A DNA stretch of 31,743 nt, from assembly GCA_021839365.1 (NCBI GenBank), contig JAKCBB010000002.1, positions 1-31,743 of the forward strand, given 5' to 3'. The notes below the pieces were generated by a model. It was not told where the DNA came from. It saw only the letters and a list, made by a program, of their open reading frames with translations, and made no database searches. A program made the position numbers and the translations under genes. Origin of the DNA: a bacterium. GTDB lineage: Bacteria; Patescibacteriota; Minisyncoccia; UBA6257; Colwellbacteraceae. Position 1 is the stretch's first letter; each line of letters opens with the position of its first letter. Positions 1 through 31,743 of this stretch are shown piece after piece.

Positions 1-319
1 GCCGAACATGGTCTTCCAGGGTTTTCGCCACCAGCTTGAGTGCCGCGTCTCCCGCATCGTGCCCATAAGTATCGTTTAACTTTTTGAAGTTATCCACGTC
101 AAGCATTATTATGCTCAGCATTGTCAGGTTGAACTTATCCTTGGACCTGCCGTGCGCCTGGCTTTTTCCTACCGCGGCTATCATTTTTTCAACGCCGTCC
201 GTAAATCCGCGGCGATTAAAAGCTCCGGTCAACGGATCCTTGTAGACCATGAGCTTCAGCCGCTCTATTTCTTTTTTCAGTCTAGAAAACTCAACCGGAC
301 TTAGATTAACGCTGGGCAT
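1..319 (-). CDS. GGDEF-domain (diguanylate cyclase-like) protein, 3'-truncated by the window edge
   Basis: Not in the ORF track; translated by hand from ATG at 319: MPSVNLSPVEFSRLKKEIERLKLMVYKDPLTGAFNRRGF...LSIIMLDVDNFKKLNDTYGHDAGDAALKLVAKTLEDHVR. DxLTG-NRR, DxDxFKxxNDxYGHxxGD are hallmark GGDEF motifs. The GG(D/E)EF motif itself lies outside the window. Confidence 0.92.
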   Translation of the reverse strand, partial: MPSVNLSPVEFSRLKKEIERLKLMVYKDPLTGAFNRRGFTDGVEKMIAAVGKSQAHGRSKDKFNLTMLSIIMLDVDNFKKLNDTYGHDAGDAALKLVAKTLEDHVR

Positions 320-337
320 AAGCGGATAAGTTTTAAT

Positions 338-664
338 CTAGGAAGTTTCCCCTTCTCTTTCAACGTTATCCACGAACTCCGCCGCTTCGTTTCTGAAGTT
401 GGCCGCTTCCTTAGCAACCAGCTCGTTGAAGTTCGGGATGCGCTGATTCAAGAACTCGGAAATCTCGTCCCCGGTAGTTCCCTCCGAACTCAGTAATTTC
501 TCGAAAGCGTCCTGATCCGCCTCGTTAAGCAAATCCAGGGAATTAACTATTATGTTCTGGAAGATTATCCGACTGATGCTCTCAAGCGCTTTTTCCTGCT
601 CCTCCGCGGGAAGAGCGTCTAATCCCAAACCTTTTACGATATTCTGTTTTATTTCCTGATCCAT
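338..664 (-). CDS. Small acidic helical protein, DUF5663-like (CPR-typical)
   Basis: 108 aa; pattern I..LGLD.LP.EEQE..L......I...I...L..L.E.DQ..F resembles DUF5663 from memory, not searched. Confidence 0.6.
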   Translation of the reverse strand: MDQEIKQNIVKGLGLDALPAEEQEKALESISRIIFQNIIVNSLDLLNEADQDAFEKLLSSEGTTGDEISEFLNQRIPNFNELVAKEAANFRNEAAEFVDNVEREGETS

Positions 665-688
665 TTTCTTGTTCTTATTTTAGACCTT

Positions 689-3619
689 TTACTTTCCTAC
701 CTGCGTTGCTTTGGTTAAAGCCGCCTGTAAAATTTCCTGTATATTAACTGGGGTAGTGTTGTTGATCTTAGCTGCTTCATTTACCCACGACGAGTTCCCC
801 ATTGCCGCTTTAATCGCCGCTGACCCGACTTTTCCGGACGCGATGCCCTGGAACAACTCTTTTACGTTCGCCGTATTCAAAGCCTGTTCCAGAATAGCAT
901 GCATTTTATCCGGCGTGACATTATTGAGCGCCGCCAATCTATCCACCCACGACTGATCCGACAGCGACGTTTCTATCTGCGCGCTTTTAAGCTGGCCCGC
1001 ATCAAGATTATGTATCCACAATTGGACATTCTGCGCTTTATCTAAGGCTTCATTCAAAGTCTTCTGCATGTCATCCGGCGTAACCCCCTTGATTTGCGCC
1101 AGCCTGTCAATCCATTCTTTATTGCCCAGCGCCGTAGTTATATCCGCAGGTCGCAAAGTTTCGTCGTTAAGTTTAGCCAGCCACTCTGCCGTATGCTGGG
1201 AATAGTCAAGCCCCGACCTAAGGTTTTCATATAATTGATTAAAAGGAGTGCCCGTTACTTGAGCCAGCTGTTCGATTCTTTCTCTGTCATACAAAACCGA
1301 CGTTATCTGAGACGGAGTCAACGTCTCATCCTTAAGCCTGGACAAGAAAGCTTCGCCCGTAGCGCGGGAAAAATTGTCCGCGGGAACGACAAACGCTTCT
1401 GCCGGAGCGGAAACTCCGGATCCCCCCGCAGCACCCTCATCGGAATGGGCTGCAGAGGCGACACCGGATAGTTTCTCCTGCGCCTCCTGCACGGAAGGCA
1501 AAGGCTGTCCGGAAAACTTTGTAGCGAACTGGTTAAGAACCTCGTTATTGTGCGTTATGCTTTGTACGTCTGCGGCTGAAAGTCTCTCGGCATGCGCGGC
1601 TGTCGCGTGCAACCATTCTTGCCCGCTTTGCGTTGCGAATAAATTAGACAGGTCAAGCTTCCCGTCCATCATATACTTCGACGGATCGGCCATAACCTTA
1701 TCCTTTATGGCGTCTATATAATAAGTCTTCGCCGCTTCCAGAGCATTTCCATGCAAGCCGCTGGCTTGCAAGGCATCGAATTGCTTCGTGCTTTGAAGCA
1801 CGTCTGAAACCTTGTTCCAAACCGATTCGCCGTTCATCGGCTGGATATACTCGCTCGGCGTAAAAGTTTCCGCGGCGGCTCCTCCTGCTCCGGCAGTTCC
1901 AGCCGCGCCACCTGCATGCTCGGCCGACCCGTGAGAAATAGGCGCAATTCCGCTTCCGGACATATGCAGTGCTTTGGCGACAGCGTCCGCATGATGGCCT
2001 AATATAAATGAGGTTGCAACTCCCGCGCCGACTTGTGCCGCGAGCATTCCGATTCTTCTCCTTTTTTCACGCTGTTCGGCAATGGTTCGCATCTCTCCAT
2101 ATTCCTGCTGCATTTTTATAAACTCATCAAGCGATGCTCCGGTAAATTTTCCGCGCATCGATCTTTCTTGATACGCCAATCCTTTCTTTTCTCCGCCGAA
2201 TACCTTATCCCACGTTTTTAAACCTAATTCAGCGGTTGCTCTCGCGCCTATTGACGCGCCGCCGCTTATCCATCTCCTCATAACCGCAGCTCCTCCGAAA
2301 ACAAGCACTGCCGGAACGGTTGCTATAGCGCCCGTTCCAACACCGAGCGCGAGCGACACTCCGGTCGAGATGGCCAGCCTTTTCCACCTCGGCTGTTTCA
2401 TCCACCAGTTAACCGCTTTTTGGACAGCGCTTTTTTCTTTCGGCGGAAAGTTTTCTATGTTCAAAGCCTGCGAGCGTTCGTACTCTTTTATAAAATGCTC
2501 GTTAAATAATTCAGCTCTATAGTCCTTAAGTTTATTATCCTTATCAGGGTCTCCTTCCAGTTCTTTGCCTTTGGCTTCGATTAACGCGCTAACGCGTTTA
2601 GCCACTGTTTCATAATGAGATCTCCTTGCTTCTTCCGCGGCCCTCAACAATCCTTCCAGCTCTTCTCCGCTCTTTTTAGCTCTTTTACTAGTTCTATACG
2701 CGGAGTAGGCCGCGGCTTGTTTGTTCCGGGCCTCTTCTACAATATTTTCATATTCAGCGGATGCCGCTGATTCTTCCGGCTTTTGTTCCGCCGCTTGTTC
2801 AGACGTAGCGGCAGCTTGATCAAGAGATTTAAGTTCTTCCTCCAGCCCTATCTGCTTTTCCTTAAGCTGCGGGGTAACAATGGCGGCCTTTCTTATCTCC
2901 TCAAGTTCTGATTCTACTTCTCTTCTCCGACTATCTCTTTCCTCAATTTCCGCTTTCTCTGCCGCTATTTTTACCTCATTTTGCCTCTCCGGAGTCAGTT
3001 TCCCGCTATCCAATTCGGCAAGTTGAGTCTTAAGTTTTTCCGTTTCCGCCTTAACATCCGCGCTTTGGTATTGCGCCCCGCCAAGTTCTTCCAGCCTCGC
3101 CTCTATTTTTCTTCTGTCCTCGTCTATCGCTTTTTGTTCCGGAGAAACCGTGATCCCCCTCTTTGCAGTCGGTTCTTCCGGCTTTTGTTCCGCCGCTTGT
3201 TCAGACGTAGCGGCAGCTTGATCAAGAGATTTAAGTTCTTCCTCTCCTGGCTCATTCTTCGCTGGCGTCTGGGCAGGCAAAGCTTCCGACTCTGATTTGC
3301 TTGTTGCGTTTAAAGCCGCTTCGGCAGGAGTCGGCCTAAACCCCGGCTGGCCGAAAGAAGAAATGCGCCCTTCCAAAAAGGAATCTCTGGCTTCCGACGT
3401 TTGGCCTTCCGCATATCTTATCCCCTCTCTTATCTCTCTTGCCTTATCGGCATTCTCTGGGGAACGAGGTAAATTCCTTAATTGGGCTTCCAGTCTTCCC
3501 TTTTCCGCATAAAGCGGCTTAACGATGTTAAAATATTCGCGCTGCTCCGGAGTTACTGGGATTTCTTTATTGTTTCCCCCCGTATTATTCCCTTTTACAC
3601 CTGGAACTTGTTCACTCAT
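689..3619 (-). CDS. 976-aa hypothetical protein: charged coiled-coil N-half, Gly/Ala-rich hydrophobic segments, C-terminal 4x55-aa helical repeats; secreted or membrane effector-like
   Basis: Long ORF. E/K/A/Q-rich N-terminus; hydrophobic stretches AISTGVSLALGVGTGAIATVPAVLVFGGAAV and IGMLAAQVGAGVATSFILG; segment GESVWNKV...TYYIDAIKDKV (possibly LysM-like); C-terminal repeats. Confidence 0.85.
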   Translation of the reverse strand: MSEQVPGVKGNNTGGNNKEIPVTPEQREYFNIVKPLYAEKGRLEAQLRNLPRSPENADKAREIREGIRYAEGQTSEARDSFLEGRISSFGQPGFRPTPAEAALNATSKSESEALPAQTPAKNEPGEEELKSLDQAAATSEQAAEQKPEEPTAKRGITVSPEQKAIDEDRRKIEARLEELGGAQYQSADVKAETEKLKTQLAELDSGKLTPERQNEVKIAAEKAEIEERDSRRREVESELEEIRKAAIVTPQLKEKQIGLEEELKSLDQAAATSEQAAEQKPEESAASAEYENIVEEARNKQAAAYSAYRTSKRAKKSGEELEGLLRAAEEARRSHYETVAKRVSALIEAKGKELEGDPDKDNKLKDYRAELFNEHFIKEYERSQALNIENFPPKEKSAVQKAVNWWMKQPRWKRLAISTGVSLALGVGTGAIATVPAVLVFGGAAVMRRWISGGASIGARATAELGLKTWDKVFGGEKKGLAYQERSMRGKFTGASLDEFIKMQQEYGEMRTIAEQREKRRRIGMLAAQVGAGVATSFILGHHADAVAKALHMSGSGIAPISHGSAEHAGGAAGTAGAGGAAAETFTPSEYIQPMNGESVWNKVSDVLQSTKQFDALQASGLHGNALEAAKTYYIDAIKDKVMADPSKYMMDGKLDLSNLFATQSGQEWLHATAAHAERLSAADVQSITHNNEVLNQFATKFSGQPLPSVQEAQEKLSGVASAAHSDEGAAGGSGVSAPAEAFVVPADNFSRATGEAFLSRLKDETLTPSQITSVLYDRERIEQLAQVTGTPFNQLYENLRSGLDYSQHTAEWLAKLNDETLRPADITTALGNKEWIDRLAQIKGVTPDDMQKTLNEALDKAQNVQLWIHNLDAGQLKSAQIETSLSDQSWVDRLAALNNVTPDKMHAILEQALNTANVKELFQGIASGKVGSAAIKAAMGNSSWVNEAAKINNTTPVNIQEILQAALTKATQVGK
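692..1345 (-). repeat. Four degenerate tandem 55-aa protein repeats at the C-terminus of the 976-aa protein
   Basis: Units begin LSRLKDETLTPSQI, LAKLNDETLRPADI, IHNLDAGQLKSAQI and FQGIASGKVGSAAI; units 2-4 share W(I/V)xxxAxxxxxTPxx(M/I)xxxLxxAL and unit 1 is more diverged; unit 2 counted as 55 aa. Confidence 0.85.
2771..2842. repeat. Perfect 72-bp intragenic direct repeat, copy A
   Basis: ttcttccggcttttgttccgccgcttgttcagacgtagcggcagcttgatcaagagatttaagttcttcctc, identical to 3173-3244; encodes EEELKSLDQAAATSEQAAEQKPEE. Confidence 0.95.
3173..3244. repeat. Perfect 72-bp intragenic direct repeat, copy B
   Basis: Identical to 2771-2842; offset of 402 bp (134 codons) keeps the frame. Confidence 0.95.
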
Positions 3620-3666
3620 ATTGGCTTGTATTTGTAATTAAATCTTCATCCCAAATTTTAATTAAG

Positions 3667-6030
3667 TCAACCCCTAAGTCTTCTGAACACATCCTCCTCC
3701 ACCGACTTCCTGCCGCGGCCATACTTCAACCGCGAAACCTCTTTCACCACCCTCGCTGTTTCCGCGATTCCTGTCTGCGGGGGCAGAGTTTTTATATTAA
3801 ACGGCTTCGCCGGCTGACCTCCGACAAGAAGCTTGGCATAGGCATTGTAGTTATCTATATTTGTAAGGTCTGCCTTGGAAAATGTCGGCTCGAATTCTTT
3901 TCCCAATTCTTCCGCATCCGGTACGCCGACGCGGAAAACAACTTTAGACCCGACGTTTCCGAACACCGCGTCCCTTATCCTGTCAGTCAATTGAGCGATG
4001 AACTGATGCGCTATGGTAAGATTAAGCCTGTATTTCCGGGCCTCGGAAAGAATGACCGCGATAGAATCGGTGGTAAAATTATGAAACTCATCTATATAAA
4101 GATAGAAATCTCTCCTCTGGCTTTCATCTGAAATATCCACTCTTGAAAGCGAAGCCATCAAAAGTTTCCCCACTATAATCATGCCCAAAAGATTGGCGTT
4201 TATATCCCCTATTCTTCCCTTCGCCAGATTGACGATAAGCGCCTTGCCTTCGTCTATCACTTTGCGGAAGTTAAACGCCGACTCGGTCTGGCCTATTATC
4301 GGCCGGATATAATCGTTGGCCGTAAAATTGTTGAACTTAGAGGTGATATACGGAGTGATGTTTGCGAGAGCCGCCTCCCCGCCGGCTTTCACCGCCTCTT
4401 TTTCCCAAAAGTCTATCACCGCAGGGTTCATTATTCTTTTTAGTTTTCTTCCCCTGTACTCCGCATCCGTAAACACCCGCGGAACTTCCATAAGAGTGGC
4501 CGGCTCGTTGTGCATATCCTCCATCAAAAGCAAAAGCGCGTTCTTCATATATTGCTCGAACATCGGACCCATCGTCTCCGGAGGGAAAAGCTTGTTGAAA
4601 ATTCCCTGCATTTCGTTCACAATGAACGTTTTTTCCTCCGGCCGCGCCATATTGTACTCAAGCATATTCAACCCGACGGGGCGCTCGATATCGGAAGGAT
4701 CCAAAACAATTATGTCGTCATATCTTTCTTTCGGGGCCAAAGCCATGATTCCTTCCGCCAGATCTCCGTGCGGATCGATTATGGCCATCCCCTTTCCGTT
4801 CTGCAAATCATTAACCGCCATGTTTTTGAGCAACGCCGATTTTCCCGTCCCGGTCTGGCCGATTACATAGAGATGTCTCCGCCTGTCGTCTTCGGAAAGC
4901 ATTATTGTCTTTCTCTCTCCGCGAAAAACGCTCTCGCCCAAAACCACTCCGCTTGTCGGCAGGTTGGCCGGCGCCGGAGCTTCTTTGCTCTTCAGCCACT
5001 TTATTTTTTGCACTCCGATAGTCGAAGTCGGCAGGTGGAAAATACTCGCCAGTTCCGTCGAATTTAAGATCATCGCCTGTGCCGGAACAAACTGCCTGAA
5101 AGAATAAGCGAAAGAAAGACCGCTTGCATTGCCCGGCTTAACGGCGTTTATCTCGCCTCTCCTCTGCGATTGGAACTGTGAAAAAGAATCGGCTGCGGAC
5201 ATCGCCAAACTCTCCGCCGCCGCGTAATCCGCCGCCGACGCCAATATCCTGAAGTTGACCTCGAATAGCGGATGGGCGATTTTGGATTCCAAAGCCTTAA
5301 CTCCCTCTTCGTCTATTATCTTCGGTCTGCCAGCTTCTCCTTCGTTTTCTTTTTTTGGTTTGGGATTTATCGCCGCGGCTAAATCCTTTAAACCTATTCC
5401 CGCCGGCGCGCTGGTAATTTTCTCGAAACTTTCTCCTTTTTTAAGTTCTCCTATTTCGCGCATTATATTTTTCTTCGTCGATGAGGCCGCCGGCCTGGCA
5501 ACGATTTGGATAGCCATTCCTTCACCGGCCTCCGCGACATTCGCAAGCGCGCTCAATATCGGAGCGAAAGTATCTATATTGGTTTCTTCGTATGTCCGTA
5601 TGGGAAGCGAATAGCCGCTTTTCTGTTTTAGATAAACGCCCGCAGCCGCGCCCGATGGGTTAAAAATATTATAATCCTCCGCTTCCTGCGCCTGTCCGTC
5701 CGGAAACAGGCCCTCTATCTGTCTCTTGACGGTAGGAATGTAATTTGCCGGAACGGAAACGTAAAAGTGTATCTCCTCCCCTATGTGGTGTACTGCCGCC
5801 TCCAAGACGAAAGGGGTTTTTAATCCGGATAGCAGCGCGTAAAGTTGCGCGGATTTATTTATCTCTTCTTTTAAATCCGTATCCGCGTCAGGCTGTTTCT
5901 GGGTCAGTCTTACAAGGAGAAGTTTCAGGTTTAATGAATTTGCGATAGATTGCTTGGCCGCGGCTTTTTTGAGAAAAAATAAAAATATTATAAGCGCAAC
6001 GAGTATGGCCGCTCCTGCCGCCCATATCAT
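3667..6030 (-). CDS. Membrane-anchored type IV secretion coupling protein-like ATPase (VirD4/TraD/TrwB-like; HerA/FtsK superfamily)
   Basis: N-terminal TM (IWAAGAAILVALIIFLFFL); Walker A HLYVIGQTGTGKS (4837-4860); IIDPHGDL; Walker B FYLYIDEFHNF; LSEARKYRLNLTIAHQFIAQL; AVFGNVGS.VVFRVG. Confidence 0.88.
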   Translation of the reverse strand: MIWAAGAAILVALIIFLFFLKKAAAKQSIANSLNLKLLLVRLTQKQPDADTDLKEEINKSAQLYALLSGLKTPFVLEAAVHHIGEEIHFYVSVPANYIPTVKRQIEGLFPDGQAQEAEDYNIFNPSGAAAGVYLKQKSGYSLPIRTYEETNIDTFAPILSALANVAEAGEGMAIQIVARPAASSTKKNIMREIGELKKGESFEKITSAPAGIGLKDLAAAINPKPKKENEGEAGRPKIIDEEGVKALESKIAHPLFEVNFRILASAADYAAAESLAMSAADSFSQFQSQRRGEINAVKPGNASGLSFAYSFRQFVPAQAMILNSTELASIFHLPTSTIGVQKIKWLKSKEAPAPANLPTSGVVLGESVFRGERKTIMLSEDDRRRHLYVIGQTGTGKSALLKNMAVNDLQNGKGMAIIDPHGDLAEGIMALAPKERYDDIIVLDPSDIERPVGLNMLEYNMARPEEKTFIVNEMQGIFNKLFPPETMGPMFEQYMKNALLLLMEDMHNEPATLMEVPRVFTDAEYRGRKLKRIMNPAVIDFWEKEAVKAGGEAALANITPYITSKFNNFTANDYIRPIIGQTESAFNFRKVIDEGKALIVNLAKGRIGDINANLLGMIIVGKLLMASLSRVDISDESQRRDFYLYIDEFHNFTTDSIAVILSEARKYRLNLTIAHQFIAQLTDRIRDAVFGNVGSKVVFRVGVPDAEELGKEFEPTFSKADLTNIDNYNAYAKLLVGGQPAKPFNIKTLPPQTGIAETARVVKEVSRLKYGRGRKSVEEDVFRRLRG

Positions 6031-6434
6031 ATTAATTTCCTGGACTTCATCTCTGCGTAAAGCTTGTCGACCAGGGCGTCATGAAACGCATCCAAAACAA
6101 AAGGGCCGGCGGCCCTTGCCTGTTTGGCCGCTTCTTCAACGCCGCTTCTAAACGCGGTTTCCAAAAGCCTTTCTACTTCCAGTCTTATTTCTTCCGGAGC
6201 CTGGTTCACGTAATCCGGGAGATAAGGAGACTGGCTGTCTTCTCCGGCATTCGTCGAAGCCTTTGCACCAGGTCGCGCCTGGATGCCGTAAACTTCCGGC
6301 TGCACCGCTTGTTTTAAAACTTCTCTTGAACTTTCTCCCGCGGATTTTTCCTTAACCTCGGCCGCAAGGCGCGCGATATCCGCCTCTATCGCCGATTGTG
6401 CCGACCCGCTCCCTTCGATTCTCTCCAGTGCCAT
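6027..6434 (-). CDS. Small helical hypothetical protein translationally coupled to the ATPase
   Basis: 135 aa; its TGA overlaps the ATPase ATG (ATGA, 6027-6030). The C-terminal PFVLDAFHDALVDKLY resembles a family I associate with CPR genomes (unverified). Confidence 0.8.
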   Translation of the reverse strand: MALERIEGSGSAQSAIEADIARLAAEVKEKSAGESSREVLKQAVQPEVYGIQARPGAKASTNAGEDSQSPYLPDYVNQAPEEIRLEVERLLETAFRSGVEEAAKQARAAGPFVLDAFHDALVDKLYAEMKSRKLI

Positions 6435-6440
6435 GACTTA

Positions 6441-6446
6441 ATAATA
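6441..6446 (-). promoter_or_regulatory. Putative -10 box (TATTAT) 6 nt before the ATG at 6434; leaderless start
   Basis: Minus strand reads TATTAT-taagtc-ATG; no clear -35. Confidence 0.4.
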
Positions 6447-6482
6447 AGACCGCGCGGCGCAAAAAAGAAGACCTGCGAAATT

Positions 6483-8279
6483 TTACGCCGACCCCCGTAG
6501 CACCGCCTCCCTGGTTCTACTGTTAGAAGCAAGAGTCTTCCATAATAAAGAAGATTTGAACTTAGCTTCGTCTCCGAATTCGCTTACAGCCTCGTTATTC
6601 ACATAATTCTCAACAAACCTTGAGATGGTTTCATTATGTTCCGGACGCAAATTGGCAAGCGCGTCCTCCAGTTTGGCTCGGTCTCCGCCCACCGCGTCCA
6701 GCAGCGCCGAGTTAAGGAGGCTTTCTATCGCGCTTTCGGCATACTCCCTATCGAATCCGACAGCATCGGCGAACGCGGCCATAGCCCCGTATATACCCTC
6801 GCACTCATTAACACCGGAAGCGGCGGCCATAATATACGATGGCCTGGATTCCAAAGATTCCAAGGATAATACGATCTCCTGCCTTACCCTGGGGGTAAGG
6901 AACTCCGGATTCGCCTTAATGAGCTCGGTTGCTCTTACAATATCCCGTGCGTCAAAAATGTTTTGGGCTTCTCCTTCTATTATCTCATCCATCTTTTGTC
7001 CGGGAATATTGCTGAAAAATTTATTATTTACAAGACGGCGCAGCGATTCGTAAAACTCATATTTCTCGTCTCCTATTTCGTGCCTGAGGTATCTGGCTAT
7101 TTTCCTATATTCTCCGGTATCGAACAAAATCATCGCTGATTTAAGCTCTTCCGTTTTACCCTCGTGCTCCGCTACGAAAAACAAATCTCCCAAGAGAGAA
7201 TAAAAAAAATCGAACTCCTTTTGCAGCTCGGCCAGATACCGGTCCATATATTCCAAGACGGTTTTCTTTGACTCCCCGCTTCTTTTGTTGCTGGAACTTT
7301 CGAAAGCGCGCCTTACCGCATTCAAGTAGCTTTTGACTTCATAAAATGCGGCGAGCTCCGTATGAAGTCTCCCTTTTCGGAGTTCGTCAAAATTAGCGAC
7401 AAGCTCTCCTTTCGAGGAAAGAACTGCCCTTTTGGCCCGCTTTATAAGCATGTCGAACTGTATTTTGCGGAGTACTTCCGAACCGCTGTCAACAGCCTGA
7501 AGAAAACGGCTGAACTCGTCGCCGGCGGCTTTCTTCTTGGTTATGTCCGCACGCGGCCTGTCATCAAACGCCTCATAAACAGAGTGCGTGTTTTCATGGC
7601 GGATGCTCTCGGCTTCGTCTTCGGCGTCCCCGGATCTTCTTATGACGTTAAACACGTCTCCTTCGAAGTGAGCGCCGTATACTCCGCGGTCGTATCCCAA
7701 AGCGCCCATCTCTCCGTCATCGAGAAGAAAGCTGACGCTGAGGCTGGAAAAAACAGTTTCCTTTTCAGCCGCCGGAATATCCAAGTCGGATATTCTTTCC
7801 GGCATTCTGACCGCGCCGGGGTCTTTTTTAAAATCCTCGTAGCGCCGCGCCTTATATCTCAGTTGCGGCTTTGCGCCGCTGAGAACGCTAAAAAGACGGA
7901 CATCGGGGTCGCCGTCAATTTCCGCTATCCTGTCTCTCGTTCTGTCGTTTTCCTCGCTTGATTTCTGAACCTCCGGGGAAGAGAAATCATAATCCGATTT
8001 TTCTATCTCCGCATCGATATTTTCGCTTATTCTGATCAAACGGTCCTTCTCGCTAAGCTGCGGAGCCGCGATTCCCCGATATCTCTCTAAAACGGCGTCT
8101 ATCTTCGCCTCCGCGTTCCGGACGAATTCCTCTCCTTTTATATCCTCTCGTTCAAGCTCCCCGCGAAGTCCGGTAATCATTCCTATCCGTTCTCTCAGCC
8201 TGTCATAAAGAGCCTCTCTTTTTTCCGCTCTTGCTTCGCCCTCGGGAACGGAAGCTCCTTGTTCAGGAAATTTTTCCAT
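6483..8279 (-). CDS. 598-aa acidic helical hypothetical protein with HExxH zinc-metallopeptidase-like motif
   Basis: IRHENTHSVYE (HENTH at 7584-7598, aa 228-232) and downstream KGELVA as a possible third-ligand Glu; no TM or Sec signal seen. Confidence 0.7.
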   Translation of the reverse strand: MEKFPEQGASVPEGEARAEKREALYDRLRERIGMITGLRGELEREDIKGEEFVRNAEAKIDAVLERYRGIAAPQLSEKDRLIRISENIDAEIEKSDYDFSSPEVQKSSEENDRTRDRIAEIDGDPDVRLFSVLSGAKPQLRYKARRYEDFKKDPGAVRMPERISDLDIPAAEKETVFSSLSVSFLLDDGEMGALGYDRGVYGAHFEGDVFNVIRRSGDAEDEAESIRHENTHSVYEAFDDRPRADITKKKAAGDEFSRFLQAVDSGSEVLRKIQFDMLIKRAKRAVLSSKGELVANFDELRKGRLHTELAAFYEVKSYLNAVRRAFESSSNKRSGESKKTVLEYMDRYLAELQKEFDFFYSLLGDLFFVAEHEGKTEELKSAMILFDTGEYRKIARYLRHEIGDEKYEFYESLRRLVNNKFFSNIPGQKMDEIIEGEAQNIFDARDIVRATELIKANPEFLTPRVRQEIVLSLESLESRPSYIMAAASGVNECEGIYGAMAAFADAVGFDREYAESAIESLLNSALLDAVGGDRAKLEDALANLRPEHNETISRFVENYVNNEAVSEFGDEAKFKSSLLWKTLASNSRTREAVLRGSA

Positions 8280-27151: not shown

Positions 27152-30100
27152 TTAATTTAACCCTAATTTCATATACCAATCGGTCCCGTTTTCCGAATAC
27201 CCGCCAAACGAGCATTTGTCGCAAACGGGATTAAGAGCTCTTCCGAATCCCGAACCGGAATCGCCGCCTGGATACGGATTGCCGTTCATAACGGCATTCT
27301 GCCAGGAGTTGTTGAAGTAACCCTGTAATTCCCCATAGTTTGCCACATCAAGCACGGCCCACCCGCCGTTATCGGCAGGCAATGTTATGGGAGAGGCAAA
27401 GGTAAACGTAACATCTTGCTGATCGGTAAGCGGGCTAACGTTCTTAATCACGCTCTCGCCGAGAAGATCGGCGAACGCCGGCGTTCCGGAAGAATCGGCG
27501 TATATGGATAATCTCAAATTAGTCGGCGCGTATCCTCCATACCAGTTCTGTCTGACTTTGACCGTAAACTTATCGAAGCTTAAGGCGGTCGATGAGGATA
27601 TTTTCTGAAAACTCGCCGAATCCGGCGCAGAATAATTCTGGTTTATATCCAGTGTCCCGAAGCTCTTGCCCCAGCTTCCGTCCCATTGATTCTGTTCTAT
27701 AACAAGATCCGCGGTTGGATATGTCCAGGTCGAAGTTTCCGCTATCGACGGCAAACCGAACGCATCCTTCGCGCGCAAGCCTATGACAAAATCATCTCCC
27801 GTGTTAACAAACCGCGAATATCTGTAACTCATACGGCCGGGATCGGTAAAATCAGCCCTCGGTTCCGGAGAAAGCGCCTGCCAGAGAGAATCATCCAGGC
27901 CGCCCGACGGCGATATATTTATCTCATAACTTGTCGAGTTCAAAATTCCGTCGCTGTCGCTCGCCGGATCCCAGCTGACGGCAAGTGCGGAGTTTTCCGG
28001 CTTGAGTTGAGTTACAAAAGCGGATGCAAAAACAGGCGCGGCGTGAAGGTTTTGAACCTCCTCGAGACTCAGATCCCGCAGAGGATAGTGGGCGTGATCC
28101 GCTGCCACAAGCCTGAACTTTCTTTCCCCGAAAACGTTGGGATCGTGATCATAATACGAAACCGTAATAAAGCTGCTCGTGGAAAGATTTAGATTTGAGG
28201 CCGGAAGCGCGGACGGAAGCAATAGATGTAAGCCGCTCTCGGCCTGAAGAGAAATATCGGTGGCATAGGGACCGTAATCGCAGAATCCGTTGGGAAAAAT
28301 CACGGCTGGGGCGGAGATATCCGATCCTCCGCAACTTACGTATTTTATATCGAAAGTGCTTGTGCCGGCCTGGAAATACTCCGACTTATCCGCGTCGCTG
28401 TTCAAAGAAAAGGCCAAAAGTCTCCAGTTGGTTTTCGTTCCGGCCGTTCCGCTCCAAAGAGGAGGTATAAACGGATCGTTTTGATAAAACGCGTCAATAA
28501 GATACGCATCGGCCCCGCTCCTCGGATCGCGATAAAAATAGAGACCGGACAAGAAACTCGGCGCGCTGGCGCTCGATGTCGCTTCGGCAAGCACCGTTCC
28601 ACCCTCATCCAAAGCCGACACCCTGAACTCATAGTTTCTCCCGACCTCGTTAATCCGTAACGCGGTGCCGGTGGTCGATATCAAAGAAGCAACCGAATCC
28701 GAAGTTCTGTCGTCTCCCCAAACCGTCTCGCCGGCGGAAGTCGATGTGGAGAGTTGAACGGTATAAAAGACAGCCGTACCAATGGCGGTACTGGTGGATA
28801 ATACATCGCTCGACGAGGCTTGAAGAGGTATAAAATCATCCCAACTCAAAGAAATCTTAAGATTGTCGGGATTATAGCTCGCGAAGAAATTGGTAATAGC
28901 CGGCAATGCCGCTGTTGATGTCGCCGTCGAAGCCGGAGTTGTAGTTGCGGTTGAGGTCGCGGTAGACGTGGAATTCGCATCGCTAGAAATACAAACCGAT
29001 GAAAACGCCGCTGGGCTGGGACATATTTGAATCTCGAAATCGGAGAAATTGTCTCCGCTATCCGCAAACTTCCCGTTCACGATCTTCCTTTCAAGACTCT
29101 GCCCGCCCGCCGGCTCCGGTGCGCAATTCCCTCTGCAATCGCCGGCCTCTCCCCATCCGACTTTATCGACAACCTCGTGATTGGGATTTTTTATGGCCAG
29201 AGAATTGTCGCCGGCTATGCCGTAAGTCGTCATAATATCACCGCTTATGCCGCCGTCCGGATTGGCGATAACCAGAAAATTCCCCGGTTGAATCATCCTG
29301 CCGTTAAATAATTCCGCCTTGGCAAAGGTTGAAAACTCGGCAGCGCTTTTCGTCTTTTTCATAACCGACCAGCCGGTTAAGTCCACGCTGGAATCGTTCG
29401 GGTTATAAATCTCTACAAATTCATCCTTAGTGCCGCTAACCGACGCCAACTGCACCTCTGTAATCAGAAGCTTTTTGTAGGCAACCCCGCTGCTTGTCGC
29501 GGTGCTCGTGGAATTATTATTTTCCGTATTAGTCTGCTGCGCCGCGGATACCGTGCCGCCTCCCCCGCCAGTCGGCGGGGTGTACGCTTGCCCGTTTTCT
29601 CGTTTCGGAGTTCCGCCTACAGCCGTTGAGGTGTGCCATCCTACGCTTCCCGAATTTCTTTCCATTGTCCTGCGCGACACCGGATCCCCCGCCGGCCACC
29701 CGCTTGCGCCATATACGCTGTCGGACAGCAAACATCCGCCGTTAAAAAGCTTTAGATCCGTTCCGCTGTTAACCAGGCTGCCGGTGTACGCCATATCAGC
29801 CTTAACGCCAGGTATGGAATCAACATCCGTCCGCTCAAGAAGATAAAACCCTCCGGGCGCGACAACGGCTCCGGCGGGCACGGTTATTTTTATATGCCCG
29901 TCTCTGCTTAAAACCCGCCAACCGGAAATATCGACCGCCGCGGATGAGATATTTTTCAATTCGATCCACTCGTCGTTCGCACCGCTTACGCTCCCCATCC
30001 ACGCAATCTCGTTAAGGATAACACCCGGATTGGCCAACTGGTCCTGAATAGAAAACGCACAGGAAACTTCCGCTTCCGGTTTCGTCTGAGCCGGAGGATT

Positions 30101-31743
30101 ATTGTCTGCCTTCGGCAAAGACAGCTTCGCCGGAGCGGTAGACGATGCGGGCGGCGCGACGTTTTTCTCCTCCCCGGGCGAGGATTCGGGCTTTGAAGGT
30201 TCAGGAGCGATTTTGTTAGCCTCGCCCGGGGTCGGTAACGCGGCAATCCATCTGCCGCCTGCAAGTTGGAGGGAGTTCCCGTCGCCGTCCGCTCCCTGAT
30301 CGGAAAAATAAGCAATCTTATCCAAAAGGACATCTCCGTTAAAAACGGATATTTCTCCGGAAGAATTATTTAAGGAAACAACGCTGTCCGCCAGCGTGCC
30401 TGAATAATTCGGAAACATGTTTTGAAAACTCCACGGATCGTCCGCTATCACCCCGTAAGCGCCGGGCGATAAAACAGAGGCGCCTGATTTTTTAATAAGA
30501 TGATTGGAACCGTTTACCTTGAGAATCAAAGAAGATAAATCGATTTTTTCTTTGTCGTTATTAAAAACCTCTATCCATTCTTTTCCGGGGTTCCCGCCTT
30601 TTGGATCATACATAATCTCCGTGATCCGAAGGGCGTATTTTTTATTCTTCTTATTTATCTCTTGTTGCGCGCTTGACGACGCCGCTGGGGCAGGCGGTAC
30701 GTTTACTCCGGTCTCGTCCGCCGCAGGCAGATTCACGGTCTGCACAAGCTTCCCTCCGCCATTCCCGACAATCTGATTAAAAGCGGAAATCGCAGTATCC
30801 TTAACCGCTCCGGCGAAATCGGCAAACGATGAAATTGCCTGTCCGATTTTCGACTTCGGCTCGACATCGAACGACTTCGCGTAAACCGGATCGTTTTGCG
30901 CCTTGGCAACCTCCCTGAAGAATAAATCTATAACTCCTGCGGAATACTGGACGGATTTTACAGAGAGAACATTCCAGTAAGAGGATTTAATTAAGTCGTT
31001 AGTAATATCTATATTTACAGCATAATCCGAGACGCCAAAGCCACTATTAGATTTTCGTGCAACATAGTGTTTGTTAGAGCCGTCACCATCGTAAAAATAA
31101 TAATGTTTATCGATTATTTCTGCTCTAGAAATAGACAATTCTGGATTAGAATATCCAGAATTTATTCCTATAGTATTATTGCTGTAGTAATGAGAGTTTG
31201 TATATTTAGCCAAAGATCCGAAATATAAGTCAATATTATCCACTTTTATTGGCTGTAAATTTAAAGTTTTGGTTTCTAAGTCACCATCTGGAGCGTTAAG
31301 ATTAAATCTGTCAGCATAAAGCTCATACGAATCATTTCCGGGATGAGGATCGTTGCGCGTGTGCGCAGGAACGGACATGTCCTCGAGAAGATGTAAAATA
31401 TGACCGAGCGCGAACATCGCCCCATTCTTGTCGCCGTTAATATAAAGATTTACCGCCTTCTGCCAGGTGAAATTTGTTTCGGCGGAAATTTTTGATATAT
31501 CTCTCCGCTCTATCGCCGTAAGAACCGAACCTATCGTCTCCGGCACCTTGTAGACCAAACCGTTCTGGGCGGACGGATTCTGCGACCATTCCTTGGCGCT
31601 TAGCCATTTTCCCGGAATCGGTATCGCCGCGTTTATGGCGGGATCATAAGTTATCCCGCGGTTATTGATCGGATCGTAAAAATGATCCATTGAGCGCGGG
31701 ATGTCGTCCTCCCGTCTCGAGCCATCGATAAGGAAATTGGCGT
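27152..31743 (-). CDS. Giant surface protein (>1529 aa, 5'-truncated): Zn-dependent phospholipase C/P1-nuclease-like domain, 3 lamin-tail domains, Ser/Thr linkers, Fn3-like C-terminal regions
   Basis: Frame is open beyond ATG 31690 to the window edge (ANFLIDGSRREDDIPRSMDHFYDP). PLC motifs HFYDP and LGHILHLLEDMSVPAHTRNDPH..YE. LTD motifs ITEIMYDP..EWIEVFN, LNEIAW..DEWIELKN, ITEVQL..DEFVEIYN. Fn3-like ISLSWDD and LAVSWDPASDSDG..YEI. Confidence 0.85.
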   Translation of the reverse strand, partial: ANFLIDGSRREDDIPRSMDHFYDPINNRGITYDPAINAAIPIPGKWLSAKEWSQNPSAQNGLVYKVPETIGSVLTAIERRDISKISAETNFTWQKAVNLYINGDKNGAMFALGHILHLLEDMSVPAHTRNDPHPGNDSYELYADRFNLNAPDGDLETKTLNLQPIKVDNIDLYFGSLAKYTNSHYYSNNTIGINSGYSNPELSISRAEIIDKHYYFYDGDGSNKHYVARKSNSGFGVSDYAVNIDITNDLIKSSYWNVLSVKSVQYSAGVIDLFFREVAKAQNDPVYAKSFDVEPKSKIGQAISSFADFAGAVKDTAISAFNQIVGNGGGKLVQTVNLPAADETGVNVPPAPAASSSAQQEINKKNKKYALRITEIMYDPKGGNPGKEWIEVFNNDKEKIDLSSLILKVNGSNHLIKKSGASVLSPGAYGVIADDPWSFQNMFPNYSGTLADSVVSLNNSSGEISVFNGDVLLDKIAYFSDQGADGDGNSLQLAGGRWIAALPTPGEANKIAPEPSKPESSPGEEKNVAPPASSTAPAKLSLPKADNNPPAQTKPEAEVSCAFSIQDQLANPGVILNEIAWMGSVSGANDEWIELKNISSAAVDISGWRVLSRDGHIKITVPAGAVVAPGGFYLLERTDVDSIPGVKADMAYTGSLVNSGTDLKLFNGGCLLSDSVYGASGWPAGDPVSRRTMERNSGSVGWHTSTAVGGTPKRENGQAYTPPTGGGGGTVSAAQQTNTENNNSTSTATSSGVAYKKLLITEVQLASVSGTKDEFVEIYNPNDSSVDLTGWSVMKKTKSAAEFSTFAKAELFNGRMIQPGNFLVIANPDGGISGDIMTTYGIAGDNSLAIKNPNHEVVDKVGWGEAGDCRGNCAPEPAGGQSLERKIVNGKFADSGDNFSDFEIQICPSPAAFSSVCISSDANSTSTATSTATTTPASTATSTAALPAITNFFASYNPDNLKISLSWDDFIPLQASSSDVLSTSTAIGTAVFYTVQLSTSTSAGETVWGDDRTSDSVASLISTTGTALRINEVGRNYEFRVSALDEGGTVLAEATSSASAPSFLSGLYFYRDPRSGADAYLIDAFYQNDPFIPPLWSGTAGTKTNWRLLAFSLNSDADKSEYFQAGTSTFDIKYVSCGGSDISAPAVIFPNGFCDYGPYATDISLQAESGLHLLLPSALPASNLNLSTSSFITVSYYDHDPNVFGERKFRLVAADHAHYPLRDLSLEEVQNLHAAPVFASAFVTQLKPENSALAVSWDPASDSDGILNSTSYEINISPSGGLDDSLWQALSPEPRADFTDPGRMSYRYSRFVNTGDDFVIGLRAKDAFGLPSIAETSTWTYPTADLVIEQNQWDGSWGKSFGTLDINQNYSAPDSASFQKISSSTALSFDKFTVKVRQNWYGGYAPTNLRLSIYADSSGTPAFADLLGESVIKNVSPLTDQQDVTFTFASPITLPADNGGWAVLDVANYGELQGYFNNSWQNAVMNGNPYPGGDSGSGFGRALNPVCDKCSFGGYSENGTDWYMKLGLN

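Follow-up and report, generated by a model that had tools for sequence, protein, structure and literature searches.

The stretch of DNA considered here, hereafter the window, is the whole 31.7-kb contig C7 (JAKCBB010000002.1, 31,743 nucleotides) of the assembly GCA_021839365.1 (535 kb, 44 contigs, 91% complete), which belongs to a bacterium of the Colwellbacteraceae within the Patescibacteriota. Patescibacteria, which live attached to the cells of a host, account for a large part of bacterial diversity. At one end of the window, six genes are grouped around an ATPase, and the present analysis deals with the nature of this ATPase and of the proteins that accompany it. A sequence-only reading of the window had proposed a module of six co-oriented, tightly spaced genes, and all six open reading frames (ORFs) were confirmed on the minus strand, co-oriented and closely packed, at the places it gave. 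As also described there, an ATGA overlap joins the stop codon of the gene for a 135-aa protein (p135) to the start codon of the ATPase gene; the remaining intergenic gaps measure 15-49 nt. From upstream to downstream, the features are the following.

6483..8279, minus strand: HExxH protein, 598 aa, predicted cytoplasmic; a lineage-specific neighbour outside the conserved module
6027..6434, minus strand: p135, 135 aa, a small, predicted cytoplasmic partner protein; part of the module core
3667..6030, minus strand: type A hybrid ATPase, 787 aa; part of the module core
5932..6030, minus strand: N-terminal hydrophobic helix of the ATPase, aa 1-33, a likely membrane anchor according to hydropathy and the structural model
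4951..5931, minus strand: DUF8128 domain of the ATPase, aa 34-360, with a predicted fold like that of the VirB4 N-terminal domain
3670..4950, minus strand: motor domain of the ATPase, aa 361-787, a RecA-like P-loop core with an all-alpha insertion at about 465-593
689..3619, minus strand: 976-aa membrane protein, from a large, fast-evolving family accompanying DUF5663; a recurrent accessory
1985..2380, minus strand: hydrophobic core of the 976-aa protein, aa 414-545, placed by hydropathy and containing the best-conserved alignment blocks
338..664, minus strand: DUF5663 protein, 108 aa, small, acidic and helical; a recurrent accessory
2..319, minus strand: GGDEF diguanylate-cyclase gene, first 106 residues, truncated by the contig end; a genus-level neighbour only

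The ATPase is matched in all 41 relatives, and the expectation that the 135-aa gene is its constant partner was borne out: of 20 loci compared within the order, 19 have a p135 homolog as the gene immediately preceding the ATPase. Similarly, in a phylum-wide sample of 151 genomes, the p135 profile retrieved homologs from 23, i.e., from 22 besides the source genome, and in 21 of these 22 the match lies immediately upstream of a full-length ATPase. p135 is present as a single copy in the source genome; its N-terminal helix is followed by a linker rich in Pro and Ala and, at the C-terminus, by a conserved motif, PFVLDAFHDALVDKLY. Five genomes, distributed over three GTDB families, encode p135 and the ATPase as a single in-frame fusion with p135 at the N-terminal end; the products, of 905-926 aa, retain the motif DPHLxDDFHxxL and are devoid of the hydrophobic helix. 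The fusion loci are L080:6929-9646, L109:1740-4475, L110:1751-4531, L111:2201-4972 and L112:2338-5094. Gene fusion of this kind is the strongest genomic evidence for a joint action of both proteins, and p135 and the ATPase, as far as gene arrangement tells, form the conserved two-gene core of a module. No Pfam family matches p135, its profile retrieved nothing under an E value of 0.2 from the sequences of the PDB, and its structure matches in the ESM Atlas all have a template-modelling (TM) score below 0.4. A complex prediction for ATPase residues 34-787 with p135, both entered as alignments, gave a score of 0.01, which counts neither for nor against binding.

Judged by its sequence and its predicted structure, the ATPase is a hybrid, which associates the layout and the N-terminal domain of VirB4 with a motor sequence of the type IV coupling protein (T4CP) kind and fails some defining features of both families. 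In the AlphaFold2 model, with a predicted local distance difference test (pLDDT) value of 88, a helix comprising residues 2-33, the single N-terminal transmembrane helix according to hydropathy, is followed by an α/β domain (35-350, the N-domain) and a RecA-like motor carrying an all-helical insertion (465-593) which is strongly conserved among the homologs. No variation was seen in Walker A (G391-K397) or Walker B (D647-E648) across 47 homologs. Folded alone, the N-domain reaches a pLDDT of 83, and it aligns with the N-terminal domain of TrwK/VirB4 (7o42_A) over 271 residues with a Z score of 16.4 in VIA-align, the runner-up scoring 8.8; the top 14 Foldseek matches are exclusively TrwK chains (E ~1e-6), followed by a gap. 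A likeness of the N-domain to type VII chains of ESX-3 and ESX-5 (Z 8.8 and 6.5) was set aside as too weak. Precomputed Pfam annotation assigns PF26449 (DUF8128) to the ATPase and its homologs, and the ESM Atlas clusters that match the N-domain (TM score 0.76-0.85) bear the same family and also occur in Saccharimonadota and Sungiibacteriota. Close homologs of the ATPase are named Tyrphobacter, Wolfebacteria and Liptonbacteria. A literature search returned no paper on DUF8128 or DUF5663 in the library searched.

The motor of the ATPase resembles, in decreasing order of Z score, TrwB (29.0), the VirB4 C-domain (28.8), DndH-C (27.0), DotL (26.1) and HerA (24.1, within a HerA range of 19-24). The alignment to TrwB covers 365 motor residues, with the VirB4 C-domain scoring alike and the all-alpha insertion not compared separately. 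At the sequence level, the motor profile of the family retrieved only TrwB (2e-7) and DotL (2e-5) as significant matches among the PDB sequences. The Pfam matches comprise TrwB_AAD_bind (PF10412, 27.9 bits for a cut-off of 20.5), T4SS-DNA_transf (PF02534, 21.1 bits for a cut-off of 20.1) and DUF87, and all equivalog cut-offs of NCBIfam were missed widely, the best scores being 44.1 bits against 366 for TIGR03743 and 38.6 against 250 for NF045973; the VirB4 model TIGR00929 gave 16.7 bits against a cut-off of 643. The description of the protein as a VirD4/TraD-like ATPase holds for its motor, which is closest in sequence to TrwB and VirD4, and no longer fits the protein as a whole, whose N-domain is VirB4-like and which belongs to a pair of ancient paralogs.

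The same layout of N-domain and motor is also encoded by large Bacillus phages, namely by BS_SP10_203 of SP-10 (843 aa, L113:2427-4958), by gp156 of phage G, and by CP-51, Shanette and JL. The phage protein matches phrog_5156 with an E value of 1.4e-78, the N-domain profile at 8e-6 and the motor profile at 1.5e-32. In SP-10, two genes for small hydrophobic proteins (136 and 114 aa) precede it, and sigma-factor genes of the phage are located ~1.3 kb upstream.

Every genome examined also possesses a second system, which consists of a Sigma70_r4/HARE-HTH protein, a separate DUF8128 protein and a separate T4CP-like motor. A maximum-likelihood tree of 82 motors, obtained from a quick IQ-TREE run with midpoint rooting and with support from the Shimodaira-Hasegawa-like approximate likelihood-ratio test (SH-aLRT) only, separates clade A, which contains all 42 p135-linked ATPases, from clade B, which contains all 22 sigma-linked split ATPases, with a support of 100 each. 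The window ATPase falls in clade A. Since each clade spans the samples taken at the order, class and phylum levels, the duplication predates the split of those classes. In the source genome, the motor profile matches these two paralogs only, and the two-clade picture agrees with the approximately two T4CP homologues per genome counted in a recent survey (PMC12102498). The gene that precedes the split paralog was searched for a p135-like motif; none was found, the gene encoding the Sigma70_r4/HARE-HTH protein.

With respect to location, the split paralog is found, within the order, after GrpE, DnaK, DnaJ, SecD and SecF and before EF-P, and SecDF remains next to it in three genomes of other classes. 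In the source genome it resides on contigs C42 and C19 (L061:215-4561 and L060:107-2339); further examples are L043-L059, L091, L094 and L097. The type A copy comes, in the genus, after GroES, GroEL, LemA and HtpX, and both paralogs are thus found beside proteostasis or export genes.

Besides p135, two other genes of the window accompany the type A ATPase repeatedly. The DUF5663 protein is assigned to PF18908 by a marginal score (24.0 bits for a cut-off of 23.7), and a profile built from 25 neighbourhood homologs matches it at 3.6e-32. It is a single-copy gene in the source genome and is carried by 7 of the 41 relatives and by 59 of 301 class genomes. Of the 57 class genomes that possess both it and the type A ATPase, 29, from at least 14 families, have the two no more than 5 kb apart. 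The commonest order is DUF5663, p135, ATPase, a position directly after the ATPase being less frequent. Both p135 and the DUF5663 protein are net acidic. In the fetched loci, DUF5663 usually adjoins a protein of 600-1400 aa, and 15 of these large proteins, including the 976-aa protein of the window, constitute one BLAST family. A common order is accordingly large protein, DUF5663, p135, ATPase; in the window, both accessories occur downstream of the ATPase.

The best-conserved blocks of the large family correspond to the hydrophobic core and its flanks (~320-545 in the window protein, with hydrophobic segments at ~414-448 and 520-543), and the N-terminus, a charged coiled coil, and the repeats at the C-terminus are variable. 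The 976-aa protein has no Pfam family, and nine large DUF5663-adjacent proteins gave no Pfam family either, save a partial LysM-like match on one of them (E 0.0055, 15 residues). Because the conserved part of the family is its transmembrane core, the sequence favours a membrane partner or client over a soluble effector, and the earlier description of the 976-aa protein as effector-like cargo does not fit it as well. After the transmembrane core, the members share the motif xGDS(I/V)Wxxa....DEArKtYlIDaiKD (~595-700 in the window protein; members in L072, L068 and L090), and the start of the GDS(I/V)W motif resembles the first strand and helix of LysM. As a lead rather than a finding, the C-terminal part of the family may be extracellular and bind the cell wall.

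The two remaining genes behave differently in the genomes compared. The HExxH motif of the 598-aa protein (H228-E229..H232, with E236) is invariant in four homologs from the genus, and it is only in these four genomes that the protein is found upstream of p135. Its family comprises 85 cluster representatives, of which three were looked up; two of them lay on contigs long enough to show neighbours and neither was beside the ATPase, homologs elsewhere adjoining unrelated genes such as dnaG and rpoD. The protein has no family match in Pfam, NCBIfam, PADLOC or PHROG, and its candidature as a zinc peptidase, examined by an ESM Atlas feature search, yielded sub-threshold leads only (0.80-0.81). The GGDEF gene matches PF00990 with 60.7 bits over the N-terminal 71 of 161 profile positions and ends before the GGDEF motif itself; its homologs are found downstream only in the genus loci L025 and L070. 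From their distribution, the HExxH and GGDEF genes are genus-level neighbours rather than parts of the module. What had been taken as a six-gene unit is reduced, on this genomic evidence, to a recurrent module of four of the six genes, p135, the ATPase, DUF5663 and the 976-aa family, organised as a two-gene core with two optional accessories.

The surroundings of the six genes also belong to the core chromosome. The tight same-strand run continues upstream to ~19.9 kb through genes for HtpX, LemA, GroEL, GroES, RmuC, a glycosyltransferase, Hsp20, PrsW, ValRS and TsaD, so that the six genes do not form a delimited block. None of the 27 window ORFs scanned matched a relaxase, VirB4 or integrase family, as the sequence-only reading had stated, and no composition shift was seen at the locus. 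The ATPase is chromosomal and located outside any conjugative element; the proposed survey of its neighbourhood found this to be partly conserved, with the ATPase associated neither with HerA/NurA nor with conjugative elements. Farther away, a 1512-aa ORF at window positions 27152-31690 (minus strand) contains three lamin-tail domains (PF00932, E 1.4e-36).

The source genome does possess a canonical VirB4 (803 aa, unsplit), encoded on contig C39 together with a PrgI/VirB3-like protein (287 aa) and proteins of 273 and 826 aa (L062:196-6917). In most class genomes VirB4 is matched as two adjacent pieces of ~220 and ~600 aa. VirB4 was detected in 119 of 121 class genomes at least 95% complete, and the two genomes in which it was not detected keep both paralogs, an observation which leans against a strict dependence of the ATPase on a type IV secretion system (T4SS), although this is a small sample and some of the effect might be due to incomplete assemblies. 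Among relaxases, the models PF03432 and PF01076 found no match in the source genome, which is 91% complete. The idea that the ATPase replaces FtsK was ruled out, FtsK being present in the source genome and in 40 of the 41 relatives.

Taken together, these data are probably best accounted for by a chromosomal module native to Patescibacteria, here called type A, with p135 and the hybrid ATPase as its core and the 976-aa family and DUF5663 as frequent accessories, a description drawn from gene content, architecture, fold, conservation, fusion and catalytic motifs. We infer the oligomeric state, the docking, the substrate and the direction of transport. As its relatives do, the ATPase would oligomerise at the membrane, and its N-domain may dock on membrane partners in the way the N-domain of VirB4 docks on VirB3 and VirB8. 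p135 would be placed beside the N-domain and act as a regulator or an adaptor, the large accessory protein would be a partner or client in the membrane, and ATP hydrolysis might power the assembly or the translocation of an envelope component or of a macromolecule.

Genetic data are available for Southlakia epibionticum ML1, from the transposon sequencing of Wang et al. 2023 (Cell, Table S1; PMC10633639). The 420-bp hypothetical gene SEML1_0141, which encodes a 139-aa ORF 13 bp upstream of SEML1_0142, was scored GD/ES/ES (growth defect, then essential), and SEML1_0142, a 3,060-bp gene for a 'TraM recognition domain' ATPase, was scored ES/ES/ES. The other T4CP-like gene, SEML1_0293, follows a sigma-factor-like gene and was scored NE (non-essential). 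Type IV secretion genes are essential in the same organism, the only one in which this has been assayed across the genome. Given that SEML1_0141/0142 and SEML1_0293 mirror the type A and type B arrangements, the window pair is taken as the likely counterpart of the essential pair. PMC12102498 calls the Southlakia T4CP homologue non-essential; Table S1 of PMC10633639 contains two such genes, SEML1_0142 being essential and the other one not, and the remark probably refers to SEML1_0293.

Several points weigh against the type A module as described above. SEML1_0141/0142 are likely counterparts of p135 and the ATPase by synteny and annotation only. The fused forms that possess no anchor helix indicate, from their sequence, that membrane anchoring through this helix is dispensable. 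DUF5663 and the large protein are absent from most same-order loci and are either optional or too diverged to be detected. The class loci L071-L090 were picked for the presence of DUF5663 near the ATPase, and only the recurrence of the large protein is unselected there. Related genomes are not independent samples. Finally, with VirB4 in 119 of the 121 class genomes, co-occurrence cannot separate a T4SS-dependent from a T4SS-independent action.

Two explanations of the function are both possible and both rather doubtful. According to the first, the ATPase would be a true coupling protein for a T4SS encoded on another contig, recruiting substrates (possibly its large neighbours) with p135 and DUF5663 as adaptor or chaperone, and delivering them to a VirB4/VirB6 channel. 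The motor is indeed closest by sequence to TrwB, DotL, TraD and VirD4, and its all-alpha insertion is at the T4CP position. T4CPs typically have small partner proteins, and the structural matches of the ATPase include Cag-beta, whose structure (8dol) also contains its small regulator CagZ. VirB4 and PrgI occur together on contig C39, VirB4 and the ATPase co-occur as stated above, and both the T4SS and the likely ATPase counterpart are essential in Southlakia. However, known T4CPs lack a VirB4-type N-domain, and the strong conservation of the all-alpha insertion fits a constant partner better than a variable cargo. The ATPase is not near virB4 in the source genome, and according to Quinonero-Coronel et al. 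2025 (PMC12102498), who suspect an exaptation, only 148 of 5,713 patescibacterial T4CP homologues are. The retention of the ATPase in the two class genomes without a detected VirB4 points the same way, as do the ~500 more assemblies that contain T4CP homologues than contain VirB4 in that survey (2,918 and 2,417, respectively, of 3,035).

The second explanation, no less tentative, assumes that the hybrid ATPase, p135, DUF5663 and the large protein might constitute an unrecognised, T4SS-independent machine for translocation or assembly at the envelope, needed for epibiotic life, in which the ATPase would be an intermediate between VirB4 and T4CPs or a chimera of both.

It is less probable that the ATPase is a nucleic-acid motor, moving DNA or RNA across the membrane for nucleotide scavenging or gene transfer. 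Among the closest relatives of solved structure are the DNA-dependent motors TrwB, HerA, FtsK and DndH, such a role is that of most characterised members of the FtsK/HerA/TrwB clade, and a weak NCBIfam match to the archaeal DNA-translocating ATPase CedD was obtained. In addition, the sister paralog always comes after the Sigma70_r4/HARE-HTH protein, which is of a DNA-binding type, homologs occur in the large Bacillus phages, and Patescibacteria rely on host nucleic acids. On the other hand, p135, DUF5663 and the large protein have no match to a nucleic-acid-binding family and the two small proteins are net acidic, FtsK is kept in the genome, and no relaxase was found with the two Pfam models. 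Loss of comEC in Southlakia ended competence and left viability unaffected, so that an essential DNA uptake is unsupported.

The initial proposal of a six-gene effector-export module, with the HExxH and 976-aa proteins as secreted cargo under the control of cyclic diguanylate from the GGDEF protein, is now very improbable. The co-orientation, the tight spacing, the conservation of the HExxH motif and the recurrent linkage of four of the six genes speak in its favour; against it, the adjacency of the HExxH and GGDEF genes is restricted to the genus, HExxH homologs elsewhere lie by dnaG or rpoD, the tight run goes on upstream into housekeeping genes, and the conserved part of the large protein is a transmembrane core. 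The least credible alternative is a HerA-type anti-phage defence system or a mobile-element remnant, to which PADLOC matches to mad8 (1.2e-17) and HerA models, HerA defence complexes among the structural matches and a full-length match to phrog_5156 would lend some colour, and against which stand a near-universal, mostly single-copy and vertical inheritance across the class among housekeeping neighbours, the lack of a nuclease, Sir2 partner, integrase or composition shift at the locus, and a likely counterpart that, unlike a defence gene, is essential for growth.

As regards the type A module, the orphan patescibacterial T4CP homologues, of which each genome contains about two and which had been counted and left unexplained, gain candidate partners and can be targeted in a species amenable to genetics, and the layout of the ATPase is relevant to the divergence of VirB4 and the coupling proteins. 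The window itself represents one more copy of a phylum-wide module, to which two lineage-specific neighbours had wrongly been added.

Compared to the known systems, the ATPase shares with VirB4 (TrwK of R388, PDB codes 7o42 and 8rtd; Thermoanaerobacter pseudethanolicus, PDB code 4ag5) a common layout, an N-terminal α/β docking domain followed by a RecA-like motor, and both kinds are also known split into separate N and C genes. In contrast to VirB4, it shows no membership of the family at the sequence level, its motor profile missing the VirB4 of the source genome itself (E <= 0.01), and it has an anchor helix of its own, is not adjoined by VirB3/PrgI, VirB6 or VirB8 genes and is accompanied by its own partners, p135, DUF5663 and the large membrane protein. 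The T4CPs, such as TrwB of R388, VirD4, TraD/TraG, DotL and Cag-beta, are nearest to the motor in sequence; they have a membrane anchor in common with the ATPase and possibly the all-alpha insertion of its motor. They possess, however, a two-helix transmembrane domain and no counterpart of the 320-aa VirB4-like N-domain with its one anchor helix, whereas the ATPase is chromosomal, vertically inherited and devoid of relaxase or T4SS linkage. With HerA-NurA and the HerA-type defence ATPases, the motor shares the fold class, whereas the sequence matches are weak, no NurA, Sir2 or DUF4297 family was found on the neighbours and the N-domain fold matches VirB4 and not the HerA chains. Finally, the T4CP homologues of PMC12102498, or PF26449, correspond to the same protein family as the ATPase, widespread in the phylum, with about two copies per genome and rarely near virB4; to that account, in the passages of it drawn on here, the VirB4-like fold of the N-domain, the two paralog clades and the p135, DUF5663 and large-protein partners are added by the present comparison.

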